UHGV virus genome: UHGV-0134758
DNA: 29,961 nucleotides
Strand: one strand, 5' to 3'
Source: a virus
Position 1 is the stretch's first letter; each line of letters opens with the position of its first letter. The notes under the pieces are model-generated. The model was not told the DNA's origin. It made no database searches and was given only the letters and a program-made list of their open reading frames with translations. Positions 1,046 to 29,916 of the stretch are shown piece by piece. The position numbers were made by a program, and so were the translations under genes.

Positions 1046-1466
1046 AATATAATCATGTGACCAATTATTATAATAATTTTAATGAATTATTTCTACTGAT
1101 TATCCAGTGTGTCTGGTGGTTTTCGGTATTATCTGCCGGAACCATGCCTCATCCAGCGAGTATTTGCTGCCGGGGTTATCCGGTTTTACGGTCACACCCT
1201 CGAGCCTCCGATTCTGGTCACGGCGGGTTTGTTATTTCCCGGTGCGTCGGATGACCACTGCCGTAACTTCTGCACCATTTTTGGGGGGGGCGGGATTCCA
1301 CTCCCACGCAACCTGCGCTTTTTGTGCAGCCTGTTTTGCTGCGCTGTCCCGGATTTTTGAGTTTCATTCTGCCCTCCCCCGATCCTATCAGGGACGACAC
1401 CCATCCACTTAAGCACGATGCCAAGACCATCAAGGAGCAGCGTCAGCGGTCCCAGCACAATGTTCT

Positions 1467-8788: not shown

Positions 8789-9090
8789 CCTAGCGTGCCG
8801 TAAAATACTACCCTTCAGGTTTAATTGACATGGTGTTTTCAATGTTATGCTATAGATTCATTTTGCTTGCTAATTTATATCAAAATTTATTGAACCAATT
8901 GTTGAGTACATTTTAAATCAGCAACTCTTAAATTTTGCTAATTAATTAGTCAGCTATCTATCGCTGTGGTTGATATTAATGTGCTGGTGTAACGTGTTTT
9001 TATATTGTGCTGTTGTCTCTGGTTGCGATTTGGTCTTAGTGTTATTTCTTGCTCTGTTTATTAATCAATTGGTTTACAGTGATGTTTTTT

Positions 9091-9218: not shown

Positions 9219-10331
9219 ATGAAAAAAATTACAGTGGCACTTTCTACGGTTGCAGCATCTGTTCTGATGGCAATGTCTGCACAAGCGGCAGAAATCTATA
9301 ACAAAGACGGTAACAAACTGGATCTGTACGGCAAAGTTAATGCAGAGCATTACTTCTCTTCTTCAGCTAGTAATGACGGAGATAAAACTTATGCTCGTAT
9401 GGGTTTCAAAGGTGAAACTCAGATTAATGACCAGTTAACCGGTTTTGGTCAGTGGGAGTACGAATTTAAAGGTAACCGTACTGAAACTGAAGGTTCTGAT
9501 AAAGATAAAACTCGTCTTGCGTTTGCAGGACTTCGCTTTGGCGATTATGGTTCGCTCGACTATGGTCGCAACTACGGTGTAGCTTATGATGTTGGCGCTT
9601 GGACTGACGTTCTGCCTGAGTTTGGTGGAGATACCTGGACTCAGACTGATGTATTTATGACCCAGCGTGCTACTGGCGTGGCGACCTATCGTAACAATGA
9701 TTTCTTCGGCCTGGTTGATGGTCTGAACTTTGCTTTGCAGTATCAAGGTAAAAATGATAGTGCTTCAAAAGTGAACAACCCGAAAGGCCGCGAAGCAGTT
9801 GAATCTAATGGTGATGGTTTTGGCCTGTCAGCTACTTACGATTATGAAGGATTTGGCGTTGCTGCAACCTATGCAAAATCTGACCGTACTGATGGGCAGG
9901 TATCCTATGCTAAAAACAGTCATCTGAATGCCTCTGGTAAAACTGCTGAAGTATGGGCTACGGGCCTGAAATATGATGCAAACAACATTTATCTGGCTGC
10001 CACTTATTCTGAAACTCAGAATATGACAGTCTTCGGTGATGATCATATTGCAAACAAAGCGAAAAACTTTGAAGCTGTTGCTCAATACCAGTTCGACTTC
10101 GGCTTGCGTCCGTCCATTGCTTACCTGCACTCTCGCGGTGAAAATATTGGTGCGTTCGGTAATCAGGATCTGGTTGAATACATCGAGGTAGGCACGACCT
10201 ATTACTTCAACAAAAATATGTCCGCTTTCGTTGACTACAAGATCAACCTGATTGATGAAAGTGAATTTACCAAAGCATCTGAGGTTGCAACCGACAACAT
10301 CGTTGCTGTTGGTATGACCTACCAATTCTAA
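9219..10331 (+). CDS. general porin of the OmpC/OmpF/PhoE family (Lc/NmpC-like phage-borne porin)
   Basis: Signal peptide [23 protein letters not shown] then mature [17 protein letters not shown]; conserved blocks GFGQWEYEF and LQYQGKN; C-terminal ...VGMTYQF with terminal Phe. Strongly resembles prophage porins Lc/NmpC from memory. Confidence 0.9.
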
Positions 10332-10539: not shown

Positions 10540-11028
10540 TCAAAACGGAATATCGTCGTCAAAGTCCATTGGAGGTTCGTTATTGGCGTTGCTCTGAGGT
10601 TTACCTCCACCACTGTATTGCTGGTAGTTTTGAGATTGGTTTGATTGCCCCCAGCCATTTGAGGGCTGTGAATCGTCACGGCGAGCGCCGATCATTTGTA
10701 TGGTGCCGCCCTGGCTGATGATAATTTCCGTCGTGTAACGTTCTACACCGGCGTCATCTGTCCACTTACGGGTTTTAAGTTTCCCTTCGATGTAGACCTG
10801 AGAACCTTTTCGTAAATACTCACTCGCAATTTCAGCAATTTTTCCGAACAAAATGACTTTATGCCATTCTGTTTGCTCTTTCTGTTGGCCTGTTTGCTTG
10901 TCGCGCCATGATTCATTCGTTGCGATGCTGAGTCTTCCGACCGCTCCGCCATTTGGTATATACCTGATCTCCGGGTCTTGCCCCAAGGTACCAATCAGGA
11001 TGACTTTGTTTACACCGCGTTGTGCCAC
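10540..11028 (-). CDS. ssb: single-stranded DNA-binding protein
   Basis: OB-fold N-terminus ([61 protein letters not shown]), Gly/Gln-rich linker and the acidic tail [11 protein letters not shown] start. Confidence 0.95.
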
Positions 11029-11047: not shown

Positions 11048-11064
11048 AAATTTATTAGAGCAAT
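11048..11064 (-). promoter_or_regulatory. C1-repressor operator-like 17-mer, 17/17 to ATTGCTCTAATAAATTT
   Basis: Plus strand reads aaatttattagagcaat, the reverse complement of the P1 C1 operator consensus as I recall it. Sits in the divergent ssb/lyz intergenic region. Confidence 0.55.
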
Positions 11065-11087
11065 AATGTATATCTTTGAAACGTAGC

Positions 11088-11097
11088 TAACAAGTGA
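11088..11097 (+). promoter_or_regulatory. conserved 10-mer TAACAAGTGA, candidate phage late-promoter element
   Basis: Same 10-mer on the coding strand upstream of the portal candidate (plus coordinates 14824..14833, reverse complement); near-copy GACAAGTGAC upstream of the mat-position ORF (24304..24313, reverse complement). Each is followed about 6 nt later by an A/T-rich -10-like hexamer. Confidence 0.35.
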
Positions 11098-11197
11098 TTT
11101 GCATTATCCTGTGCCTTCTAAAGGGATCGAGTCAGTCGGTATTGGCTGTGAATGGGTGTTTGTCCTGGAGCGTAAAAAATTCTCTTATGAGGTCTTT

Positions 11198-14843: not shown

Positions 14844-17800
14844 ATGAACAAGCTATCTATGGGGTTGTTTCGCTGTTCAAGTGTCAGCGAAATATTGAAA
14901 TACATTAGGGCAATAACATCTCATCGAGCGCCGATTAGATACGGCGTGGAAAAGGTGGAAGGCAAAAGCTATGACCGGCTGCGCCGGGAGGCGAATCAGA
15001 AGGCGATAGATTTGCTTAATTCGCTGGTGGACGGCGCGACACTGACAGATGAACAGCGCCAGATCCTGGCCGGGTACACTGGTGAAGGCGGCATTGGCGG
15101 GTCCGTCTCCGAATATTACACACCAAAGCCTATCGCTGAAGGCGTCTGGGAGATCATGAAGCTCTATGGCGCGGACGTAGGTAACACTCTGGAACCATCG
15201 GCGGGCACCGGCGTTTTTAATGAGACAAAACCGGTTGGTACGGTGATGACCGCGACTGAGATCAGCAGTGTTTCCGGTCGTATAAACCAGCTGTTACATC
15301 CGGAAGACAGCGTACAGATTTCCCCGTTCGAACAACTCGCTGTAAGCACGCCTAACGATTCATTCGACCATGTTGTGGGTAACGTTCCGTTCGGCGGTCG
15401 TGATAACACACGCAACATCGATAAGCCTTACGCAGAAGAAACGGATATGGGGTCTTACTTCATGCTCCGCATGCTGGACAAGATAAAGCCAGGCGGATTC
15501 ATGTGTGTGATTGTGCCGCCGTCCATTGTTTCAGGTTCAAACATGAAGCGGTTACGCCTGCGCCTATCACGGAAAGCTGAATTTCTTGGTGCCCACCGCT
15601 TGCCTACCGGTACTTTTGACGCAAACGGGACCAGTACGGTCGTTGACGTGGTGCTGATGCGCAAACATCCGGCGGAGATGGCTGAGAAAATCCCCCTGGT
15701 GGATGAAGGCACTCTTGAATCGGCAAATGTGCTTTGGCCAACGTTTATTTCTGGCAAGTGGTTTGAAAAGGACGGCCGCCGGTTTGTTCATGGCACCCAG
15801 GAGAAGGGATTCCAGGGGCGTATTGAGGTTCGTGCCGACGGGCAGATTGATAACCAGGCTCTTAAAGCGAAGCTGATTCATCGTTTCGAAAGTCGTATCG
15901 ACTGGTCTTTGCTCGATATGGCTGAACCGTCACCGACCGCAGACGTTGTTGGTGAAGGGGAAATACGCCTGATTAATGGCGTATGGCAAAAATATGCTGG
16001 TGGTCGCTGGATTGAATCTGATGCCGGGAAGGAGCTGAAGATTGATGTTGCCAGTTATGGCGCGGATAGCTGGGAGGCTCTTCAGCGTAACCTGACTACA
16101 ACAGAAGGCCGTCTCGGCATGACATTTACCCAGATGGCAAATGTCCGCGATAAGTACACCACATCAATCAGCGACGATATGGTGCAGCTGGTGGACTGGA
16201 TTAACAGCCAGCCTGAAAAATACCGTGAACGCTTGTATCGCGGGGCGATGATTGGCCGGATGTTAATTGAATATCAGGATATGAAGGCCGCCGGGCATAG
16301 TGCTGAACAAATCGAACAGCAGCGCCTTTCCCTGGTATCCCGTTTGCAGGCAGAGATTGACCGTTTTGGTAACCCCGGTCGCGGTCCGATAGCGAAATTA
16401 TCGGGGAGCGGTGCGCGCGCCTGGTTTGCTTTCCGTGGTGCAATTAAGCTGGATGGCACTATTTCTGACGAGCTGACAGGAAAGCTGGTTACGCATGATT
16501 CCAGCGCCAGTTATGACTCCACCAGCTATCAGGACACCCTGCGTTATCTCTACAGTGATCTCACTCGCGATCCAATCCAGCTCGATGATTTCCGCCTTGC
16601 GTTTACCGGCGAACTGCCAGCCAGTGATGACGAGTTGCTTAATTTATTGGCCAGCACCCCTGGCATTGCGGTTTCACCGTATGGCGGGATTGTTCCGTTT
16701 GCCCGCGCCACCAGCGGCGACATTAACGAGATAGTGGCTCCAAAACAGGAATTCCTCGCCACGCTCCCCGACGGTCCAGTAAAGAACAACGTCCTTAATC
16801 AGCTGGCAGCGATCGAAGAGAAGCGCATCAAGACGCCAGCAGAGAATATCCGGTTTAAGCTCAATAGCCGTTGGTTTGACCGTTCCGTCATCCTGGAGTT
16901 TTTGCAGGAAAACGGCTATCCGGATCTGCGCTATGTGCAGTCAGTGCAGCTGGAAGGCGACGAAATGGTTTCTGACACCTATCACGGTGGTGATGGTCTG
17001 TTCGTCGGACACCGATACGGTGTCGTCCAGCGCAAGGATAAAGAAACAGGCGAGATCCGCTACGAGTGGGACCGTAAATCAGGTGAAAACGCGACCGGGT
17101 TCCCGGCACAGCTGGAAAAGTATCTCAATGGTGCGCGTATCGGTGGCAAAGATAGCGCGACGGCGAACGGCTACCGCGAGCAGATGGCACTGCTTGAGGA
17201 CCAGTTCAATAAGTGGATCAAGACGCACGATCGCTACGATGAGCTGGTTGCCAAATACAACGATGTGTTCAATAGCAATATCCCGTATGAACACTCTGGC
17301 GATCCGCTTGGGTTGAAGGGATTAAGCGGTAAGCGCCAGCCATTTGATTACCAGAATAGCGAGGTGCGCCGACTGTCCGAAGATGGGCGCGGCATCCTGG
17401 GCTTCGGCACCGGGCTGGGTAAAACCACGACCGCGCTGGCGCTTGAGGCGTTCAACTATGAGAACGGTCGCTCCACCCGTACTGCGTATGTAGTGCCTAA
17501 ATCAGTGCTGGAAAACTGGTATTACGAAGCAAAAGAATTCCTGAGTGAAGAGGCATTCAGTAACTACCTGTTCGTCGGTCTTGATGTGCTGATGGATGGC
17601 GATCAGATTCGCCAGGTGCCGGTGCTCGATGAGAACGGTAAACCAGTTCTTGGTACTGATGGCACTCCAGTTATGCGCGATGCTCTTAAGCTGGCAGATG
17701 AAGCCACTATCACGGCGCGGATGAACGCGATCCCGCACTCAAATTACCGTGCAGTCGTGTTTACCAAAGAACAATACGCCCGCATTCCGCTACGTGATGA

Positions 17801-21644: not shown

Positions 21645-22085
21645 ATGGCCACACTATCTGATACAATAAAACCGAATAAAACATATCTTGAGGCGGTACT
21701 CCGTACAGCGTTGTTAGGAAAGACAGAAGACGAATACGTTGATTTCTTCCTATCAGGGCTACGCGGGCGATTACTGAAAAACCCCCGCCTGTACCGCAGC
21801 TATGGCCCATACTGGCCGGAAATTAAAAAATTATTACTGGAGCGCGGTTATGGTAATTTCGGTCGTCTCGTTGACCGTGACGTTCGCAAAATTTACCGTT
21901 ATGACCGCCCGGCGCTAACACTCATAGCCGCGACGCTCTACAGCCAGGAGCGTTTTGATAATGGTCAGATATACTCAGCCTGGCATTTACTGCCAGTGCC
22001 TGAAGAAGTTGACGACCAGGACTATGAGTTTGAGTCTTACGATTTGGAAGTTGAAGCCTTGGCACAGGCTGGAGAGAAAACTTGA
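21645..22085 (+). CDS. hypothetical protein (position of P1 ulx)
   Basis: 146-aa ORF starting 34 nt after darB; preceded by a GC hairpin with a UUCG-type loop. Confidence 0.5.
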   Translation: MATLSDTIKPNKTYLEAVLRTALLGKTEDEYVDFFLSGLRGRLLKNPRLYRSYGPYWPEIKKLLLERGYGNFGRLVDRDVRKIYRYDRPALTLIAATLYSQERFDNGQIYSAWHLLPVPEEVDDQDYEFESYDLEVEALAQAGEKT

Positions 22086-22330
22086 AAAAGCGATACTACA
22101 CAGTAAAGCATGGGACGCTACGGGCATTACAAGAGTTTGCTGACAAGCATAACGTTGAGGTGCGCAGGGAAGGGGGAAGTAAAGCTCTGCGCATGTACCG
22201 TCCGGACGGGAAATGGCGTACGGTCGTCGATTTCAAAACTAACAGTGTTCCCCAAGGTGTCCGCGATCGGGCATTCGAAGAATGGGAGCAGATCATCATA
22301 GATAACGCATTGCTTCTGAATGCTGATTAA
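22082..22330 (+). CDS. small protein (position of P1 lxc)
   Basis: 82 aa, TTG start overlapping the previous stop (TTGA), GGAGAG 5 nt upstream. Confidence 0.45.
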   Translation: MKKRYYTVKHGTLRALQEFADKHNVEVRREGGSKALRMYRPDGKWRTVVDFKTNSVPQGVRDRAFEEWEQIIIDNALLLNAD

Positions 22331-22382: not shown

Positions 22383-23423
22383 GTGTTAGTTAAATATATA
22401 GGCGAGAGTTATATGGATAAACCTTGGCCGGGCATGCACATTAGAACATCTTGTCTGGAGGATGGTTTCTTTAGAGCAACGCAACCAAAGTATCTTAATG
22501 ATCCGTCGAGTGAGTCGCGACTTCTTCCATTTTTTAATAAATTTTCACCAGCCGATTACGCATGGGCTAGAAATGAATTTAAGAAAATGCAACGAGATCC
22601 ATCTTATGTCCCATCTATACAAGAGTTAGAGTATTATTTAAAACCTTGCGGGAAACGATACGGAGAGGATTTTCCACACTTGTTAATCAATGAAGGTTTT
22701 ACCTCAATGGATTCATATGATGAATCTAAACTCCAAGAAATAGTAACGTACCTTAACGATTATTTAGTAGAAGCCGTAAGCTGTCATCTTGGTGTGTTCT
22801 CTCTATCAAAAAGTGATTGCAATCTACACATGTGGACTCATTATGCATCGATAGGAAAGGGGTTTGCTGTAGTTTTCGATGAAACACACGATTTTTTCAA
22901 AATATATCGGCCGTGTGATGTTAGTTATAATCCAGAAGATAGAGCATCTGTAACCTATTATAAAGGCGCTGTGCGATTTAATGGCTATCCTGCGCCATCG
23001 AGGAATATAGATATAAAGAATAAAGATAATACATTGCATGGGATCTTAAATCGAGATTCAGTTCGCGAGCTTTTTATTAATAGGCTTCTTTATACAAAAG
23101 GTGAAGAGTGGCTTCCTGAAAATGAAAGTAGAATTATTTTTCCATTGGCTGATTGCGAGAGAAAAATAGGAAGTATTGTCTCTCCATCGATTGATGACTG
23201 CCTATTAAATGAGTATCCTGATGTTTTTCATGACTATCATGAAATTAACTTAAAGAAAATTCCTTTTTCTGCATTCAAGCAAATTACCTTAGGGTATAAC
23301 ATGACTGAAAAAGATAAAAATATAATTTTAGATAAAGTTAGTTCGAATAAAGAATTGTCTCACGTCAACGTATTACATTCAAAACTTGATATATACGGAA
23401 AGGTTGTGGTTAAGCCCATGTAA
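22383..23423 (+). CDS. DUF2971-like protein of unknown function; candidate single-gene anti-phage defence / abortive-infection cargo
   Basis: Markedly AT-rich 346-codon ORF (alternative ATG at 22413). Motifs FRATQPKYLNDPSSE and CNLHMWTHYASIGKGFAVVFD resemble the two DUF2971 signature blocks as I recall them. Isolated between the lxc-position ORF and the convergent mat-position ORF. Confidence 0.7.
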   Translation: MLVKYIGESYMDKPWPGMHIRTSCLEDGFFRATQPKYLNDPSSESRLLPFFNKFSPADYAWARNEFKKMQRDPSYVPSIQELEYYLKPCGKRYGEDFPHLLINEGFTSMDSYDESKLQEIVTYLNDYLVEAVSCHLGVFSLSKSDCNLHMWTHYASIGKGFAVVFDETHDFFKIYRPCDVSYNPEDRASVTYYKGAVRFNGYPAPSRNIDIKNKDNTLHGILNRDSVRELFINRLLYTKGEEWLPENESRIIFPLADCERKIGSIVSPSIDDCLLNEYPDVFHDYHEINLKKIPFSAFKQITLGYNMTEKDKNIILDKVSSNKELSHVNVLHSKLDIYGKVVVKPM

Positions 23424-23520: not shown

Positions 23521-24162
23521 TTATAGAATATTATTCTTTCCGGTGAGTATTCCTTGAGGAACTCTAGCGCATCCCATAATTTGAGTTTTCTTGATGATGT
23601 TTATATATGACGCTATCAGCGATGAGTCATCACGACTATCCACTTCACAAGCCATTGCCCTGATGTAGTCGGCGCTGGCAACGTTGTTGTATTCCGTCGC
23701 AAAGCAACAGAGTAACGTCAGAACATGCTCTGTCGTTATTTCGCTCCAGTTGATGTTGAAAAATTCATCGCCTTTTTTATCGTGTTCGGAATCGAAGATG
23801 CTTTGGTGGAGGATGTATTTGCCGGATTCCTTGCGCGGTAACTTGATTGCTTTCTGGCGTTCCAGCTCCTTATAAATCTGCATTGCCTCAATTAGTACCG
23901 GCCTGCCGTTCATGAAGGGATCGCGCAACCTTACACGCTGGCCAACTCGACCAGTAATAAAGCTGTTTTCCTCTTCCACCAGCACGATAAAACCCTTTTC
24001 CTCTTTTTCTCGCAATTCGCGCAGCAGCTGGAGTTCCATGTCGCGGCGGCGTTCAGGGTAGCTGGTCCGCTCAGCCATTATCAGCTCGTTATTGATCCAT
24101 GCAGCAGTCATTGACGCCGGTTTGCCGACGCTCATCGAAACAACGCATATTTTCTTATCCAT
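23521..24162 (-). CDS. hypothetical protein (position of P1 mat, particle maturation)
   Basis: ATG at 24162 with AGGGG 5 nt upstream (the track's GTG start is at 24189). The late-promoter-like motif lies about 140 nt upstream. Confidence 0.5.
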   Translation of the reverse strand: MDKKICVVSMSVGKPASMTAAWINNELIMAERTSYPERRRDMELQLLRELREKEEKGFIVLVEEENSFITGRVGQRVRLRDPFMNGRPVLIEAMQIYKELERQKAIKLPRKESGKYILHQSIFDSEHDKKGDEFFNINWSEITTEHVLTLLCCFATEYNNVASADYIRAMACEVDSRDDSSLIASYINIIKKTQIMGCARVPQGILTGKNNIL

Positions 24163-24350
24163 AGCGCCCCTACAAAAAAGAAAAGCCACCAGCGGCGGCT
24201 TAGCAATACAACTGAAGGTAGCACCCGGTACTCAGACTGTGCCGTCCATGGAATATTTGAAAAGGGATCCATCCGTACCGGGCGTGTGATGATTCTGACT
24301 GAAGTCACTTGTCAGTTGTCAATCATTTATCATTAAAAATAATATATTTA

Positions 24351-24911
24351 TTAGTGCATGATGTTTGCCATCTCATAGGCGTCAGCCAGTAACTCCATCT
24401 CTGACTTGTTCAGCAGGGTGAATTCTTTCTTGCCTCCAACCACACCATCGGCATGAACAGGGACCAGCCAGGGGTATTTTGCTCTTACTTCAGCCGGTGC
24501 TGCATGCTGGTGGTGCCATCTACAAAGTGGCAATTGCTTTTTATGACAACCCGGCGCGGTGCGACCGGCGATATGGTGCAGAGACACTTCATTAGATATT
24601 ACTCCATGCATATAGCAGGCAATGCAGGGGAGAGCGCCAAGAGCATTGGCGATGCGCCGTTCCTCCGCCGTTGGTGTTCTCCCCTTCAAGCCACGAGATT
24701 TTATTTTTACCGCGCTTTTCCGCGTTTTGCTGGCTGGTGGGCGCTCTTTCTGTTTAGCGATACGGCGGTCGATAGTATCCCGCATTTTCTGATATTGAGA
24801 TTCTCGCCAGACCGGATCAGCCAACTTCTCCCGTTGCCGAGCGATCGCTCGTTCTCTGGCTGCCTTCTGCCACTTGCGGCACTGTTCAATTTTTTGTTCG
24901 ATTGTTTTCAT
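24351..24911 (-). CDS. ref: Ref-like HNH endonuclease (recombination enhancement function)
   Basis: 186 aa; Cys/His-rich HNH-type core CIACYMHGVISNEVSLHHIAGRTAPGCHKKQLPLCRWHHQ and a basic N-terminal region. Matches P1 Ref from memory; C1-operator-like sites upstream. Confidence 0.8.
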   Translation of the reverse strand: MKTIEQKIEQCRKWQKAARERAIARQREKLADPVWRESQYQKMRDTIDRRIAKQKERPPASKTRKSAVKIKSRGLKGRTPTAEERRIANALGALPCIACYMHGVISNEVSLHHIAGRTAPGCHKKQLPLCRWHHQHAAPAEVRAKYPWLVPVHADGVVGGKKEFTLLNKSEMELLADAYEMANIMH

Positions 24912-24996: not shown

Positions 24997-25026
24997 GGAT
25001 CAATTATAGCAATAAATTAGAGCAAT
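24997..25026 (-). promoter_or_regulatory. pair of C1-operator-like 17-mers overlapping divergent promoter elements
   Basis: caataaattagagcaat (14/17) and ggatcaattatagcaat (12/17). Perfect TATAAT on the minus strand and TTGACA on the plus strand (approx. 24983). Coordinates are approximate. Confidence 0.4.
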
Positions 25027-25158: not shown

Positions 25159-25470
25159 TTATTTCATCATGGAAGCTGTTAATGCTTTGGACCTTGCTGA
25201 ACTGATTGAGAGGGCTTTGTCAACGTGCCCCAAAAATTCGCCAAACTCAGACATCACTTTGGCAAAACCGCGCCGTGCTTCTTCCTCGGTGGCATTCATC
25301 ACGAAATGTTCAGCACTACGCATACTTTTGACAGGAAACGCAACGGATATTGAGTCAATATCAGGCATTCTATCGCTCAGCTTTACAGTGACAATGACGG
25401 CTGGCGACTGAATATTAGTGCTTACAGACAGCACTACATATTTTCCGTCGATGTTGAAATCCTTTCTCAT
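25159..25470 (-). CDS. hypothetical protein (position of P1 cra)
   Basis: 103-aa ORF between cre and ref on the same strand, with GGTGG before the ATG. A plus-strand ORF (25100..25411) overlaps it but runs through a terminator hairpin. Confidence 0.45.
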   Translation of the reverse strand: MRKDFNIDGKYVVLSVSTNIQSPAVIVTVKLSDRMPDIDSISVAFPVKSMRSAEHFVMNATEEEARRGFAKVMSEFGEFLGHVDKALSISSARSKALTASMMK

Positions 25471-25486
25471 ATGCCACCATAAACAT

Positions 25487-25503
25487 CAAAGAATTAGAGC
25501 AAT
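25487..25503 (-). promoter_or_regulatory. C1-operator-like 17-mer (13/17)
   Basis: caaagaattagagcaat between the cre stop and the start of the cra-position ORF. Confidence 0.35.
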
Positions 25504-26559: not shown

Positions 26560-26781
26560 TCAGATAATGGTTTTAAGTAAAGTGTACAGGATCGGCTCTG
26601 CCTTTACCTGTTTATGGTTCTCGTCATAGAAACGCCAGCGACCGCGCGTGCGTTCTATCTTTTCTTCACCGCGCGATAATGACAGTTGGCAACTATCACG
26701 ATCAAACCCTTTTGCCCGCCAGTAACCACGATTTTTCTCAAGCTCAAGATGAGTGGACACTTTAGCAGCTGAATATCCCAT
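26560..26781 (-). CDS. small ORF immediately upstream of cre (uncertain)
   Basis: 73 codons, AGAGGTG 4 nt before the ATG, TGA stop 7 nt before the cre ATG. No homology recognised; may be non-coding regulatory DNA. Confidence 0.3.
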   Translation of the reverse strand: MGYSAAKVSTHLELEKNRGYWRAKGFDRDSCQLSLSRGEEKIERTRGRWRFYDENHKQVKAEPILYTLLKTII

Positions 26782-26970: not shown

Positions 26971-27004
26971 ATAACTTCGTATAATGTATGCTATACGAAG
27001 TTAT
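26971..27004. other. loxP recombination site (13-bp inverted repeats around an 8-bp spacer)
   Basis: ATAACTTCGTATA-ATGTATGC-TATACGAAGTTAT read directly, canonical loxP. Hand-counted, plus or minus 1 nt. Confidence 0.95.
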
Positions 27005-27047: not shown

Positions 27048-27064
27048 AGAATTATTAGAGCAAT
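27048..27064 (-). promoter_or_regulatory. C1-operator-like 17-mer (15/17)
   Basis: agaattattagagcaat between loxP and coi. Confidence 0.5.
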
Positions 27065-27130
27065 AAATTTTGAGAGAAAAATCCCACTCCACCAGCAAAA
27101 AACTGGATTGTTTTTCATAGTTGTTTGACA

Positions 27131-27147
27131 ATTGCTCTAATAAATTA
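27131..27147 (+). promoter_or_regulatory. C1-operator-like 17-mer (16/17) directly abutting a TTGACA -35
   Basis: ttgaca-attgctctaataaatta; candidate autoregulated promoter of the coi-c1 operon. Confidence 0.55.
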
Positions 27148-27375
27148 TAGTTTTGCCGCCGTTTCGTAATATGACATCAAGGCCATTTTCAGGTGTTATA
27201 GAGCGGCTCAGAAGGAAATGAGCAAACAGGGAAACCTTATACAAACGGCATTACGGCTATGCATTGCTCATCTTACACACAGCGCAATGTTGTTAGATAA
27301 CCCCAGCATGGATCATGGGTGAAACAGTAGGTCAGAGCTTCAGGCTCTGTGTTGCAAATACAGTGAGGCATAATT

Positions 27376-27585
27376 ATGGCTTTCATTCAACCAACCATCG
27401 ACGACGTTAGACATTGCTCTAACGCTTTATCTGTAGATCCCACCGAAACCGACGCTGCCCGCGCCATTGCTGAACACTACTCAAAGATATCCAATCAGGA
27501 GTACCGCATCACCCAAGACGACCTGGATGACCTCACTGACACAATCGAATATCTCATGGCAACTAACCAGTTAGACTCACAATAA
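27376..27585 (+). CDS. coi: Coi-like C1 inactivator
   Basis: 69-aa acidic protein immediately upstream of c1, GTGAGG Shine-Dalgarno. Size and position match P1 Coi from memory. Confidence 0.7.
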   Translation: MAFIQPTIDDVRHCSNALSVDPTETDAARAIAEHYSKISNQEYRITQDDLDDLTDTIEYLMATNQLDSQ

Positions 27586-27695
27586 ATGCACTAATAAATC
27601 TATTATTTTTGTTTGATCCCTCTATAATATAGGTCAGTAATGACCGGTTTTCTCAGCCGGGCGTTATTGACCATGTCAATTCTGGAGGAGGATCA

Positions 27696-28547
27696 ATGAT
27701 AAATTATGTCTACGGCGAACAACTGTACCAAGAGTTCGTCAGCTTCAGGGATCTCTTTCTAAAAAAAGCTGTTGCACGCGCCCAACACGTTGATGCCGCC
27801 AGCGACGGTCGTCCTGTACGCCCGGTTGTCGTTCTGCCGTTCAAAGAAACGGACAGCATTCAGGCTGAAATTGATAAATGGACTTTAATGGCGCGGGAAC
27901 TGGAACAGTATCCAGACCTCAATATCCCAAAAACTATTTTATACCCTGTGCCTAACATCCTTCGCGGTGTGCGTAAGGTTACGACTTATCAGACAGAAGC
28001 TGTGAACAGCGTCAACATGACCGCTGGCCGCATTATTCATCTGATTGATAAGGACATTCGCATCCAGAAAAGCGCTGGGATCAATGAGCACAGTGCGAAA
28101 TACATTGAGAACCTGGAAGCAACAAAAGAGCTAATGAAGCAGTACCCGGAGGATGAAAAATTCCGTATGCGCGTACACGGCTTTAGCGAAACAATGCTGC
28201 GCGTCCATTACATTTCCAGTAGCCCTAACTACAATGATGGTAAATCAGTTAGTTACCATGTGCCGCTATGTGGTGTGTTTATCTGCGATGAAACTCTCCG
28301 AGATGGAATCATCATCAACGGTGAATTTGAGAAAGCAAAATTTAGCCTTTATGACTCCATAGAACCGATCATCTGCGACCGCTGGCCGCAGGCAAAAATA
28401 TATCGCCTGGCAGATATTGAAAATGTAAAAAAACAAATTGCCATCACTCGCGAAGAGAAAAAGGTCAAATCAGCCGCATCTGTTACACGCAGCCGTAAAA
28501 CTAAGAAGGGGCAGCCAGTAAACAGCAACCCCGAAAGCGCGCAATAA
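27696..28547 (+). CDS. c1: C1-like primary immunity repressor
   Basis: 283 aa (the length I recall for P1 C1), GGAGGAGGA Shine-Dalgarno, basic C-terminal tail. Its cognate operator-like 17-mers recur across the window. Confidence 0.85.
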   Translation: MINYVYGEQLYQEFVSFRDLFLKKAVARAQHVDAASDGRPVRPVVVLPFKETDSIQAEIDKWTLMARELEQYPDLNIPKTILYPVPNILRGVRKVTTYQTEAVNSVNMTAGRIIHLIDKDIRIQKSAGINEHSAKYIENLEATKELMKQYPEDEKFRMRVHGFSETMLRVHYISSSPNYNDGKSVSYHVPLCGVFICDETLRDGIIINGEFEKAKFSLYDSIEPIICDRWPQAKIYRLADIENVKKQIAITREEKKVKSAASVTRSRKTKKGQPVNSNPESAQ

Positions 28548-28579: not shown

Positions 28580-29698
28580 TTATTCAGCCGCCACCGGTTT
28601 TAACAAGCCAGCATCGAGCAGTTTACGCGTCAACCACTGTTGGCCTTTCCCCGTTAATTGAGGCGTCAGCCGTATCTGATAGCCATCTTCATCATCCAGT
28701 ACCACTTCTTTCACCGTGAAATACCCGGCGTTGATGTACTGCTGGAACGGCACATTTTTACGTCCGCCGGACGCAATCAGGATGCCGTTCTCCCGTAACC
28801 AGGCAAACAGCGCGTTTTGCTTAAGTCCAACAACCTTTGCAAAATTCCCAATCAGGATCCCTTTAGCTACTGATACCCGGTCGGCAAAATCGACTTTAGG
28901 AGCGGCGGCCACCAGCTGCTGATTTAGCTGGTGGGCTTTCTGTTCCAGAAGCTGCTTTTGTTCAGCCAGTTCGGCAGCCAGGCGCAGAGCTTCTGGAAGC
29001 GTCTGGGGGATTGCAACCGGTTGCTGTTCTTTTTGTCGGAAGTAGCTGTCTTCCAGTTTTTCAAAGAATGCCCATGCCTGATCGGTTTCGAGCATTTTAG
29101 CGTGGCGGGCTGCGCCGCGTTCCGTCCAGAGGATGAGTGAGCGAACATTGCGAGCAATTTTTACAGAGTAGTTTAAAGCTACTCTGTGCTTCAACTCGCG
29201 CAATGATTCTCCTTCAACTTTGAAAAAGTGCTTCCCTTCAACAAAGCGTACTTTGTTCTCATGATGATTCTGGCGAATGCGAATTGTTTCTGTGCCATAC
29301 CCCTTAGCAAGAATCTCGCTCGTCACGACACGTACTCCCTGCCATTCCAGAACGGGAATTTCATCAGGCTGATTTTGAGCAACCACCAGCTCCGATTCCT
29401 GAACTGAAGGTGTATTAATTTTCTCGGATTTAACGTTAGTAGCTTTCATTCTGTGTGCCTCCTTGCGTGTTTCAGCTGCTACGGTTGCGTAATTCAGGTG
29501 CCCCTGTTCGAGCAGGTATTCGCGGATATCAGACAGCAGGATGCGGTGAACCGCGTTCTTGTCCTTTCTCCGGTAAAGTTGCTTGGTGATCATGAAGTAG
29601 TTGGCAATAACGCCCGGTATATCCCTGGTACTGATACAGGCTGTGTGCTGTTCAATTGCCTCGATCATCTCTTCACGGGTGACTAATGACGTTCTCAT
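28580..29698 (-). CDS. ant: antirepressor (Ant1/Ant2-like, KilA-N / ORF6N-type N-terminal region and antirepressor C-terminal region)
   Basis: 372-aa ORF with an in-frame internal start at Met84 (approx. nt 29449) preceded by AAGGAGG, giving a second product of about 289 aa. This two-start architecture matches what I recall for P1 ant1/ant2. Confidence 0.7.
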   Translation of the reverse strand: MRTSLVTREEMIEAIEQHTACISTRDIPGVIANYFMITKQLYRRKDKNAVHRILLSDIREYLLEQGHLNYATVAAETRKEAHRMKATNVKSEKINTPSVQESELVVAQNQPDEIPVLEWQGVRVVTSEILAKGYGTETIRIRQNHHENKVRFVEGKHFFKVEGESLRELKHRVALNYSVKIARNVRSLILWTERGAARHAKMLETDQAWAFFEKLEDSYFRQKEQQPVAIPQTLPEALRLAAELAEQKQLLEQKAHQLNQQLVAAAPKVDFADRVSVAKGILIGNFAKVVGLKQNALFAWLRENGILIASGGRKNVPFQQYINAGYFTVKEVVLDDEDGYQIRLTPQLTGKGQQWLTRKLLDAGLLKPVAAE

Positions 29699-29916
29699 AG
29701 TCCCTCCTGAGCAGAATCGTTAACAGGGAGGCACCAGTAACTGAGAGAATTGCGTGAATCAGTGGAAAAACGGGCAGAGAAAATGCAGGGAGCATCCGGA
29801 AGCTGAGAGCGAGCCTCATCTTCTGTTGTTGCGATAACGAAGTGATAGTGACGTTTTTGGCAGGAGTAAAAGCGCCAGATAAATTCAGGATGAGTAGGGG
29901 TAGGGATAGTAGCCAT
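29695..29916 (-). CDS. icd: small ORF overlapping the ant start (Icd-like, interference with cell division)
   Basis: 73 codons; stop overlaps the ant ATG (ATGA); AAGGAGG before its start. Matches the icd-ant arrangement of the P1 immI region from memory. Confidence 0.5.
   Translation of the reverse strand: MATIPTPTHPEFIWRFYSCQKRHYHFVIATTEDEARSQLPDAPCIFSARFSTDSRNSLSYWCLPVNDSAQEGL

Follow-up and report, generated by a model that had tools for sequence, protein, structure and literature searches.

A 17-nucleotide word resembling the operator of the phage P1 repressor C1 recurs in the viral sequence analyzed here (UHGV-0134758; the whole stretch of 29,961 nucleotides is referred to as the window), including one copy between the genes ssb and lyz. 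This raises the question of whether these copies form the regulon of a resident C1-like repressor, as the original prediction had it, or whether, in A+T-rich intergenic DNA, so A+T-rich a word recurs by chance and its copies have no common function. In P1, C1 binds 22 operators that are dispersed over the genome and share the asymmetric 17-bp consensus ATTGCTCTAATAAATTT; the protein Lxc strengthens C1 binding, and Coi inactivates C1 (PMC8546580; also PMC8198154). On the basis of the sequence comparisons described below, we consider the 17-mers of the window to be, with a probability of about 0.94, dispersed asymmetric C1 operators of a P1/P7-like plasmid prophage.

Judged by megablast against phage records, the window belongs to a P1/P7-like punavirus plasmid-prophage, with 95–98% identity to P1, P7, JL22, phi456 and relatives. 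Its orientation is the reverse of the P1 reference AF234172.1, with window position 26988 corresponding to P1 nt 1 (the loxP centre) and window position 11056 to P1 nt 21023. Read leftwards, the genes follow the order of P1 with c1, coi, loxP, cra, cre, c8, ref and mat, an ORF with a DUF2971 domain at the place of res/mod, and then lxc, ulx, darB, prt, pro, lydE/D, lyz and ssb; the leftmost genes, beyond ssb, are a P7-type nmpC porin gene, a block from ddrB to lydA, and cin. The EcoP1 type III restriction-modification genes res and mod are absent, and the DUF2971-domain ORF (346 aa; 22383–23423, plus strand) lies between lxc and mat. The NmpC/OmpC-type porin gene (9219–10331, plus strand) is located between the ddrB block and ssb. 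A porin gene before ssb is present in P7 but not in P1, which carries isaA and IS1 at that place, and the ssb-nmpC-lyz neighbourhood of the window is P7-like.

All sites named in the original prediction are present in the window, with the coordinates and match counts given there. Allowing up to three mismatches, the consensus 17-mer yields 7 matches in the window against 0.17 expected, a number reached in none of 100 shuffles. The 11-nt core ATTGCTCTAAT occurs five times exactly and eight times with at most one mismatch (0.72 expected at up to one mismatch), while a uniform-base calculation gives about 0.01 exact copies in 2 × 30 kb. For the matrix scan, P1 was reassembled from its loci and 20 monovalent sites annotated as 'protein_bind, phage repressor C1' were extracted, with the annotated features of GenBank records AF234172.1, AF125376.2 and AF503408.1 as the source of the operator list. 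To avoid circularity, the position-weight matrix was trained only on the 12 P1 operators without a counterpart in the window (Oc4, OrepL, Orlf, Odmt, Obana/b, O26, Oppp, OpmgRa/b, OpmgT and Olpa). A scan with P1 operators was the test named in the original prediction, and its outcome was not the absence of an excess: 9 sites scored 12 bits or more where 0.59 would be expected, and none of 300 second-order Markov simulations produced more than 4.

In keeping with an origin by chance, the motif has a low-complexity A/T sequence in its 3' half, and matches below about 12 bits occur at a rate that the simulations can approach (12 sites at ≥10 bits against 1.56 expected, with a simulated maximum of 6). 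The strong matches, however, are about 15 times commoner than expected, no shuffle or simulation equals the observed counts, the G/C-containing 11-mer core occurs in five exact copies, and the sites fall on annotated P1/P7 operators. The excess over an A+T-rich background is therefore real; chance is already refuted as an explanation of the strong sites, and we give it a negligible probability for the set of matches. Ossb, Omat, Oref, Oc1a, Oc1d and Oc1e score 20.7–28.5 bits, within the 19.8–28.5 bits spanned by the training operators. They have the form of a P1-type C1 operator, that is, a 17-bp asymmetric match to the consensus with 0 to 3 mismatches and the core ATTGCTCTAAT / ATTGCACTAAT, and alignments of the ssb-lyz, c8-ref and immC regions show that the strong sites are orthologous in position to operators defined in P1 and P7.

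The copy between ssb and lyz, predicted to be a perfect consensus match, is indeed an exact ATTGCTCTAATAAATTT at 11048–11064 on the minus strand, and its 28.5 bits are the maximum of the matrix. It aligns with the P1 protein_bind feature Ossb/Op21 and with P7 Op(ssb), and corresponds to the monovalent C1 operator Ossb (formerly Op21). In AF125376.2, Op21 is annotated as 'binding site for the major P1 repressor protein C1' and adjoins the 'promoter of ssb-P1'. Between ssb and lyz, the spacers of the window, P1 and P7 share 98% identity; the sole change within Ossb, from T in P1 and P7 to A in the window at position 12, yields the perfect consensus, and this A12 allele is common to 4 of 80 IMG/VR relatives. 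Across the IMG/VR Lyz loci, the Op21 core is kept where Lyz identity falls to 82–84%, and loci with non-P1 Lyz homologues have lost it. Plasmids have little power in this comparison: none of about 500 P1-like records falls below 95% identity, and the rest are unrelated ssb genes.

Next to Ossb lies the sigma-70 promoter P2ssb (formerly Pr21; 11065–11093, minus strand), with the −35 hexamer TTGTTA at 11093–11088 and the −10 hexamer TACATT at 11070–11065. Both hexamers are identical to those of P1, the alignment being identical over the promoter. P2ssb is placed by annotation transfer from P1 only, because a strict consensus promoter scan of the ssb-lyz gap called no promoter, P2ssb included. 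On the ssb strand, Ossb starts at the base right after the −10 hexamer, so that bound C1 would cover the start-site region. The gene ssb (10540–11028, minus strand, with its start at 11028) is identified by its ORF, a Pfam SSB match (E 1.9e-38) and the annotation of P1 and P7. On the opposite strand, lyz is situated behind the Lpa-dependent late promoter LPlyz (approximately 11092–11110) and is not a direct target of C1. The target of Ossb is consequently ssb and not lyz, which is only indirectly under C1, and the 'something in the ssb/lyz region' that C1 was originally proposed to control is ssb.

Further operators are found around ref (24351–24911, minus strand). Oref (formerly Op2a) at 25010–25026 on the minus strand reads ATTGCTCTAATTTATTG, and matches the consensus at 14/17 positions with 20.65 bits; its aligned counterparts are Oref in P1 and Op(ref) in P7. 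According to the promoter scan, it occupies the 18-nt spacer of P2ref, between the −35 hexamer TCTACA (25032–25027) and the −10 hexamer TATAAT (25008–25003). Omat (formerly Op2b; 24344–24360, minus strand) reads CATGCACTAATAAATAT, scores 20.7 bits and is identical to P1 2628–2644, which is annotated as Omat; it overlaps the stop codon of ref, with Pmat (−35 TTGACA at 24322–24317) downstream of it. As a separate observation, the 5' end of mat (23521–24282, minus strand) is out of frame compared to P1 Mat and runs into an in-frame stop some 16 codons in, and identity to P1 Mat picks up again at MDKKICVV. The Mat protein of the window probably starts at this internal ATG (MDKKICVV) or is truncated.

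Another group of operators lies at coi and c1. Both sites that had been proposed to flank the coi-c1 promoter were found as described, with 15/17 matches at 27048–27064 and 16/17 at 27131–27147, the latter directly after a TTGACA. The former, on the minus strand, is Oc1e (formerly Op99e; 25.4 bits, identical to P1 94724–94740) and adjoins the −35 hexamer (TTGATT, 27048–27043) of P4cre, which reads through loxP (26971–27004) into cra and cre. The latter, on the plus strand, is Oc1d (formerly Op99d; 25.8 bits, identical to P1 94641–94657) and forms the exact 17-nt spacer of P1coi (formerly P99d), between TTGACA at 27125–27130 and a −10 region at approximately 27148–27154. Within coi, Oc1c (formerly Op99c; 27413–27429, plus strand) reads ATTGCTCTAACGCTTTA and is identical to P1 94349–94365, annotated as Oc1c. 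The bivalent operator Oc1ab (formerly Op99a/b; 27585–27612) lies over the −35 region of Pc1 and consists of Oc1a (27585–27601, plus strand; AATGCACTAATAAATCT, 23.2 bits, identical to P1) and the overlapping Oc1b (27596–27612, minus strand; ACAAAAATAATAGATTT, one base different from P1). Oc1c, with 10.4 bits, and Oc1b are not recognisable from sequence alone. The initial list of sites was incomplete, having overlooked Omat, Oc1c, Oc1a/b and a 17.35-bit site at 14898–14914.

The proteins that would act on these operators are encoded in the window as well. The repressor gene c1 (27696–28547, plus strand; phrog_1678) encodes a protein identical to P1 C1.100 at 281 of 283 residues. The C1 inactivator gene coi (27376–27585, plus strand; phrog_2079), an ORF near-identical in DNA sequence to P1 coi, is co-transcribed with c1 from P1coi. 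The gene lxc (bof; 22082–22330, plus strand) encodes a co-repressor that strengthens C1-operator binding (role according to PMC8546580) and is identical to P1 Lxc at 82 of 82 residues. Together with the operators, these regulators make up the C1-dependent portion of the P1 immunity system, namely immC and the co-repressor gene lxc. None of C1, Coi, Lxc and C8 has a Pfam family, and PHROGs offers unnamed families only; the identity of these four proteins is derived from direct comparison with P1.

Downstream of c1, on the opposite strand, the window carries an antirepressor gene (372 aa, with ORF6N and KilAC domains) and an Icd-like gene (28580–29916, minus strand), whereas c1 is followed by pacB in P1. 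Phage 673R5 and more than 280 P1-like plasmids share this c1-ant-icd layout. The cassette of 673R5 is preceded by an operator of 22.8 bits, TTTGCTCTAATAAATTG; the equivalent position would lie about 270 nt past the end of the window.

Could the operators be intact relics of a regulon that has become inoperative through a defective C1, a changed specificity or an override by the extra ant-icd cassette? Such a scenario could draw on the presence of this cassette directly downstream of c1 and on the two residues at which C1 differs from P1 C1.100 (G193 vs C, S277 vs D). The protein used for comparison is, however, the thermosensitive c1.100 mutant, and the difference at residue 193 may just be the wild-type residue. 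Moreover, the plasmids mentioned above, which have the c1-ant-icd arrangement, are evidently maintained, and all Oc1 sites and their promoters are intact. We consider the loss of a working regulon very improbable and retain the reading of the sites as C1 operators.

That C1 binds operators of this kind comes from the experimental work on P1 behind its annotated sites (Op21, Op2 and Op99) and from the literature summarised in PMC8546580, and for this particular element we infer binding and repression from the orthology of sites and repressor. Oref lies in the spacer of P2ref, Oc1d in that of P1coi and, by annotation transfer, Ossb beside the −10 hexamer of P2ssb; this promoter geometry, like the orthology and the motif excess, is a direct result of the comparisons made here. 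In the lysogen, C1 aided by Lxc would bind each site as a monovalent operator and Oc1ab as a bivalent one. Since each site is located inside or beside a sigma-70 promoter, bound C1 would block RNA polymerase. On Ossb, it would shut off ssb via P2ssb; on Oref (in the P2ref spacer), Omat (near Pmat) and Oc1d (in the P1coi spacer), it would block the respective promoters, and on Oc1e it would block P4cre transcription into cra-cre, while c1 itself would be autoregulated through Oc1c and Oc1a/b. Removal of C1 by induction, or by Coi and Ant, would de-repress all these promoters together. Expression of lyz would depend on LPlyz and Lpa, with the Lpa promoter itself controlled by C1 elsewhere in the genome. 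The proposal that a C1-like repressor controls ref, genes around cre, its own operon and the ssb/lyz region is thus supported, with minor corrections, by operators that are orthologous to annotated P1/P7 sites.

The weaker copies of the motif differ in their standing. Matches below about 12 bits are located at 1064–1080, 8883–8899, 22464–22480 and 24997–25013, and with about 1.6 matches of at least 10 bits expected, those starting at 24997, 1064 and 8883 could be due to chance. The match at 1064–1080 (12.4 bits) consists of A/T only and lacks the G/C core. It was considered as a counterpart of P7 Op(lydC) and rejected as unsupported, because the cin-lydC spacer of the window is not homologous to that of P7 or P1. 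In P7 (AF503408.1), which has orthologues of two window sites in Op(ssb) and Op(ref), the DNA between cin and lydC shows no sequence relationship to that of the window (1046–1110), which is without the predicted Op(lydC) of P7, TTTACTCTAATGCGTTG, or a counterpart of it. The match at 8883–8899, upstream of nmpC, reads ATTGGTTCAATAAATTT with 11.6 bits and has three changes in the core; no counterpart with up to two mismatches was found in the P7, P1 and 673R5 loci, and we treated it as chance.

Two adjacent sites had been proposed upstream of ref. Both are present, but only Oref is a recognised operator. Its unannotated neighbour at 24997–25013 on the minus strand (ATTGCTATAATTGATCC, 12/17, 11.95 bits) overlaps Oref by 4 nt, has an A in place of the otherwise invariant base at position 7, and includes the −10 hexamer TATAAT of P2ref (25008–25003); it was rejected as a second ref operator. 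This overlap illustrates an alternative for the weaker or unannotated copies (24997–25013, 25487–25503 and 14898–14914), namely that they are conserved as promoter elements or other signals and not as C1 sites.

For the site at 14898–14914 (minus strand; ATTGCCCTAATGTATTT, 17.35 bits), another signal of this kind would be coding sequence, as it lies in codons 19–24 of darB, directed towards prt. It is identical in P1 at 17166–17182, where the P1 record holds no feature, and it is conserved in 80 relatives, as is the surrounding darB coding sequence. Its conservation is uninformative because this coding sequence is uniformly conserved. The promoter scan revealed no sigma-70 promoter overlapping 14898–14914. 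This darB-internal site might be a real C1 binding site.

A different picture emerges for the site at 25487–25503 on the minus strand (ATTGCTCTAATTCTTTG, 16.9 bits), which matches the consensus at 13/17 positions and has a perfect 11-nt core. It was correctly placed beside cre, but its neighbouring ORF, taken in the original prediction for the one at the cra position, is c8; cra (26560–26781) lies on the far side of cre from c8. The gene c8 (25159–25470, minus strand; phrog_1968) is a putative lysogeny-establishment gene whose ORF aligns with c8 of P1, P7 and phiW39, and the site is located 16 nt upstream of its start codon, in the same direction as c8. The sequence is conserved in P1, and neither the P1 nor the P7 record annotates an operator there. 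In both phages the allele is ATTGCTATAATTATTTG (P1 nt 1485–1501), with an A at the invariant position 7, so that the core ATTGCTCTAAT of the window stands against ATTGCTATAAT in P1 and P7.

We analyzed the conservation of this site in 80 IMG/VR loci encoding C8 (42 distinct sequences). C at position 7, and with it the exact operator core, was found in 74/80 loci. Among the alleles, ATTGCTCTAATTATTTG (17 loci) reaches 22.3 bits and ATTGCTCTAATTATTTT 24.9 bits, which is the range of bona fide operators. In the 42 distinct sequences, the 18 nt from the cre stop codon to the site are hypervariable, with a mean entropy of 0.70 bits, while the 11-nt core has a mean entropy of 0.056 bits, below that of the flanking coding sequence (0.085 and 0.153). 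The low entropy beside a hypervariable spacer clearly marks the operator core as a phylogenetic footprint.

As to a role as promoter element, the P1/P7 core ATTGCTATAAT is a perfect −10 hexamer, with its A at the position that is invariant in operators, and might serve as a −10 box. By contrast, 74 of the 80 relatives have C at position 7, with which the −10 consensus is lost and the exact operator core regained, some variants reach 22–25 bits, and the occurrence of 11 of 11 operator bases in an unrelated element is improbable. The promoter scan called no promoter over 25487–25503, and the only promoter that P1 annotates for c8 is a predicted one, Pc8, within the 3' end of cre; C1 bound at the site might act as a roadblock or by promoter occlusion. 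We regard promoter elements or other signals as a rather unlikely explanation of the weaker copies taken together. For the site upstream of c8 itself, we see an even chance that it is a real, previously unannotated C1 operator ('Oc8') that happens to be weakened in the laboratory types P1 and P7. An intact core is found in about 90% of P1-like phage-plasmids, and the degradation of position 7 in P1 and P7 would explain the absence of Oc8 from their operator lists. Literature searches, with the text of the P1 genome paper outside their scope, returned no mention of the c8 or darB site.

Compared to the P1 operators (AF234172.1, AF125376.2), the window has Op2a/Oref, Op2b/Omat, Op21/Ossb and Op99a–e/Oc1a–e at the same genes, positions and orientation. 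Oc1a, Oc1c, Oc1d, Oc1e and Omat are identical to P1, while Oc1b, Oref and Ossb differ by one base each; the repressor is 99% and Lxc 100% identical. The P7-like nmpC, the missing res/mod genes and the ant-icd cassette after c1 set the window apart from P1.

The use of one repressor with many dispersed asymmetric sites, as opposed to few symmetric operators, is a contrast drawn in PMC1934351. The C1 regulon described here falls on the dispersed side of it and is textbook P1 biology that was already known. The repressor gp71 of mycobacteriophage L5/L1 acts on many asymmetric, non-palindromic 13-bp 'stoperators' dispersed genome-wide, and L5 sites inside transcription units serve as orientation-dependent roadblocks. 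The gp71 repressor and its motif are unrelated to P1 C1, and the likeness is one of working without any membership in the same group; in contrast to the roadblocks of L5 within transcription units, the P1-type sites of the window mostly overlap promoters.

For this element, the findings have mainly annotation value, as they define a complete immC circuitry (c1, coi and Oc1a–e), lxc, and C1-controlled promoters of ssb, ref, mat and cra-cre. With the immC circuitry complete and lxc present, lysis-lysogeny control should work as in P1, and the current understanding is unchallenged by our findings. The only addition to the reference annotations is the conserved operator core before c8. If this operator is real, c8, a poorly understood lysogeny-establishment gene, would fall under direct C1 control; binding of C1 to the site would thus add one gene to a regulon that has been studied since the 1980s and provide a simple handle on the function of c8.
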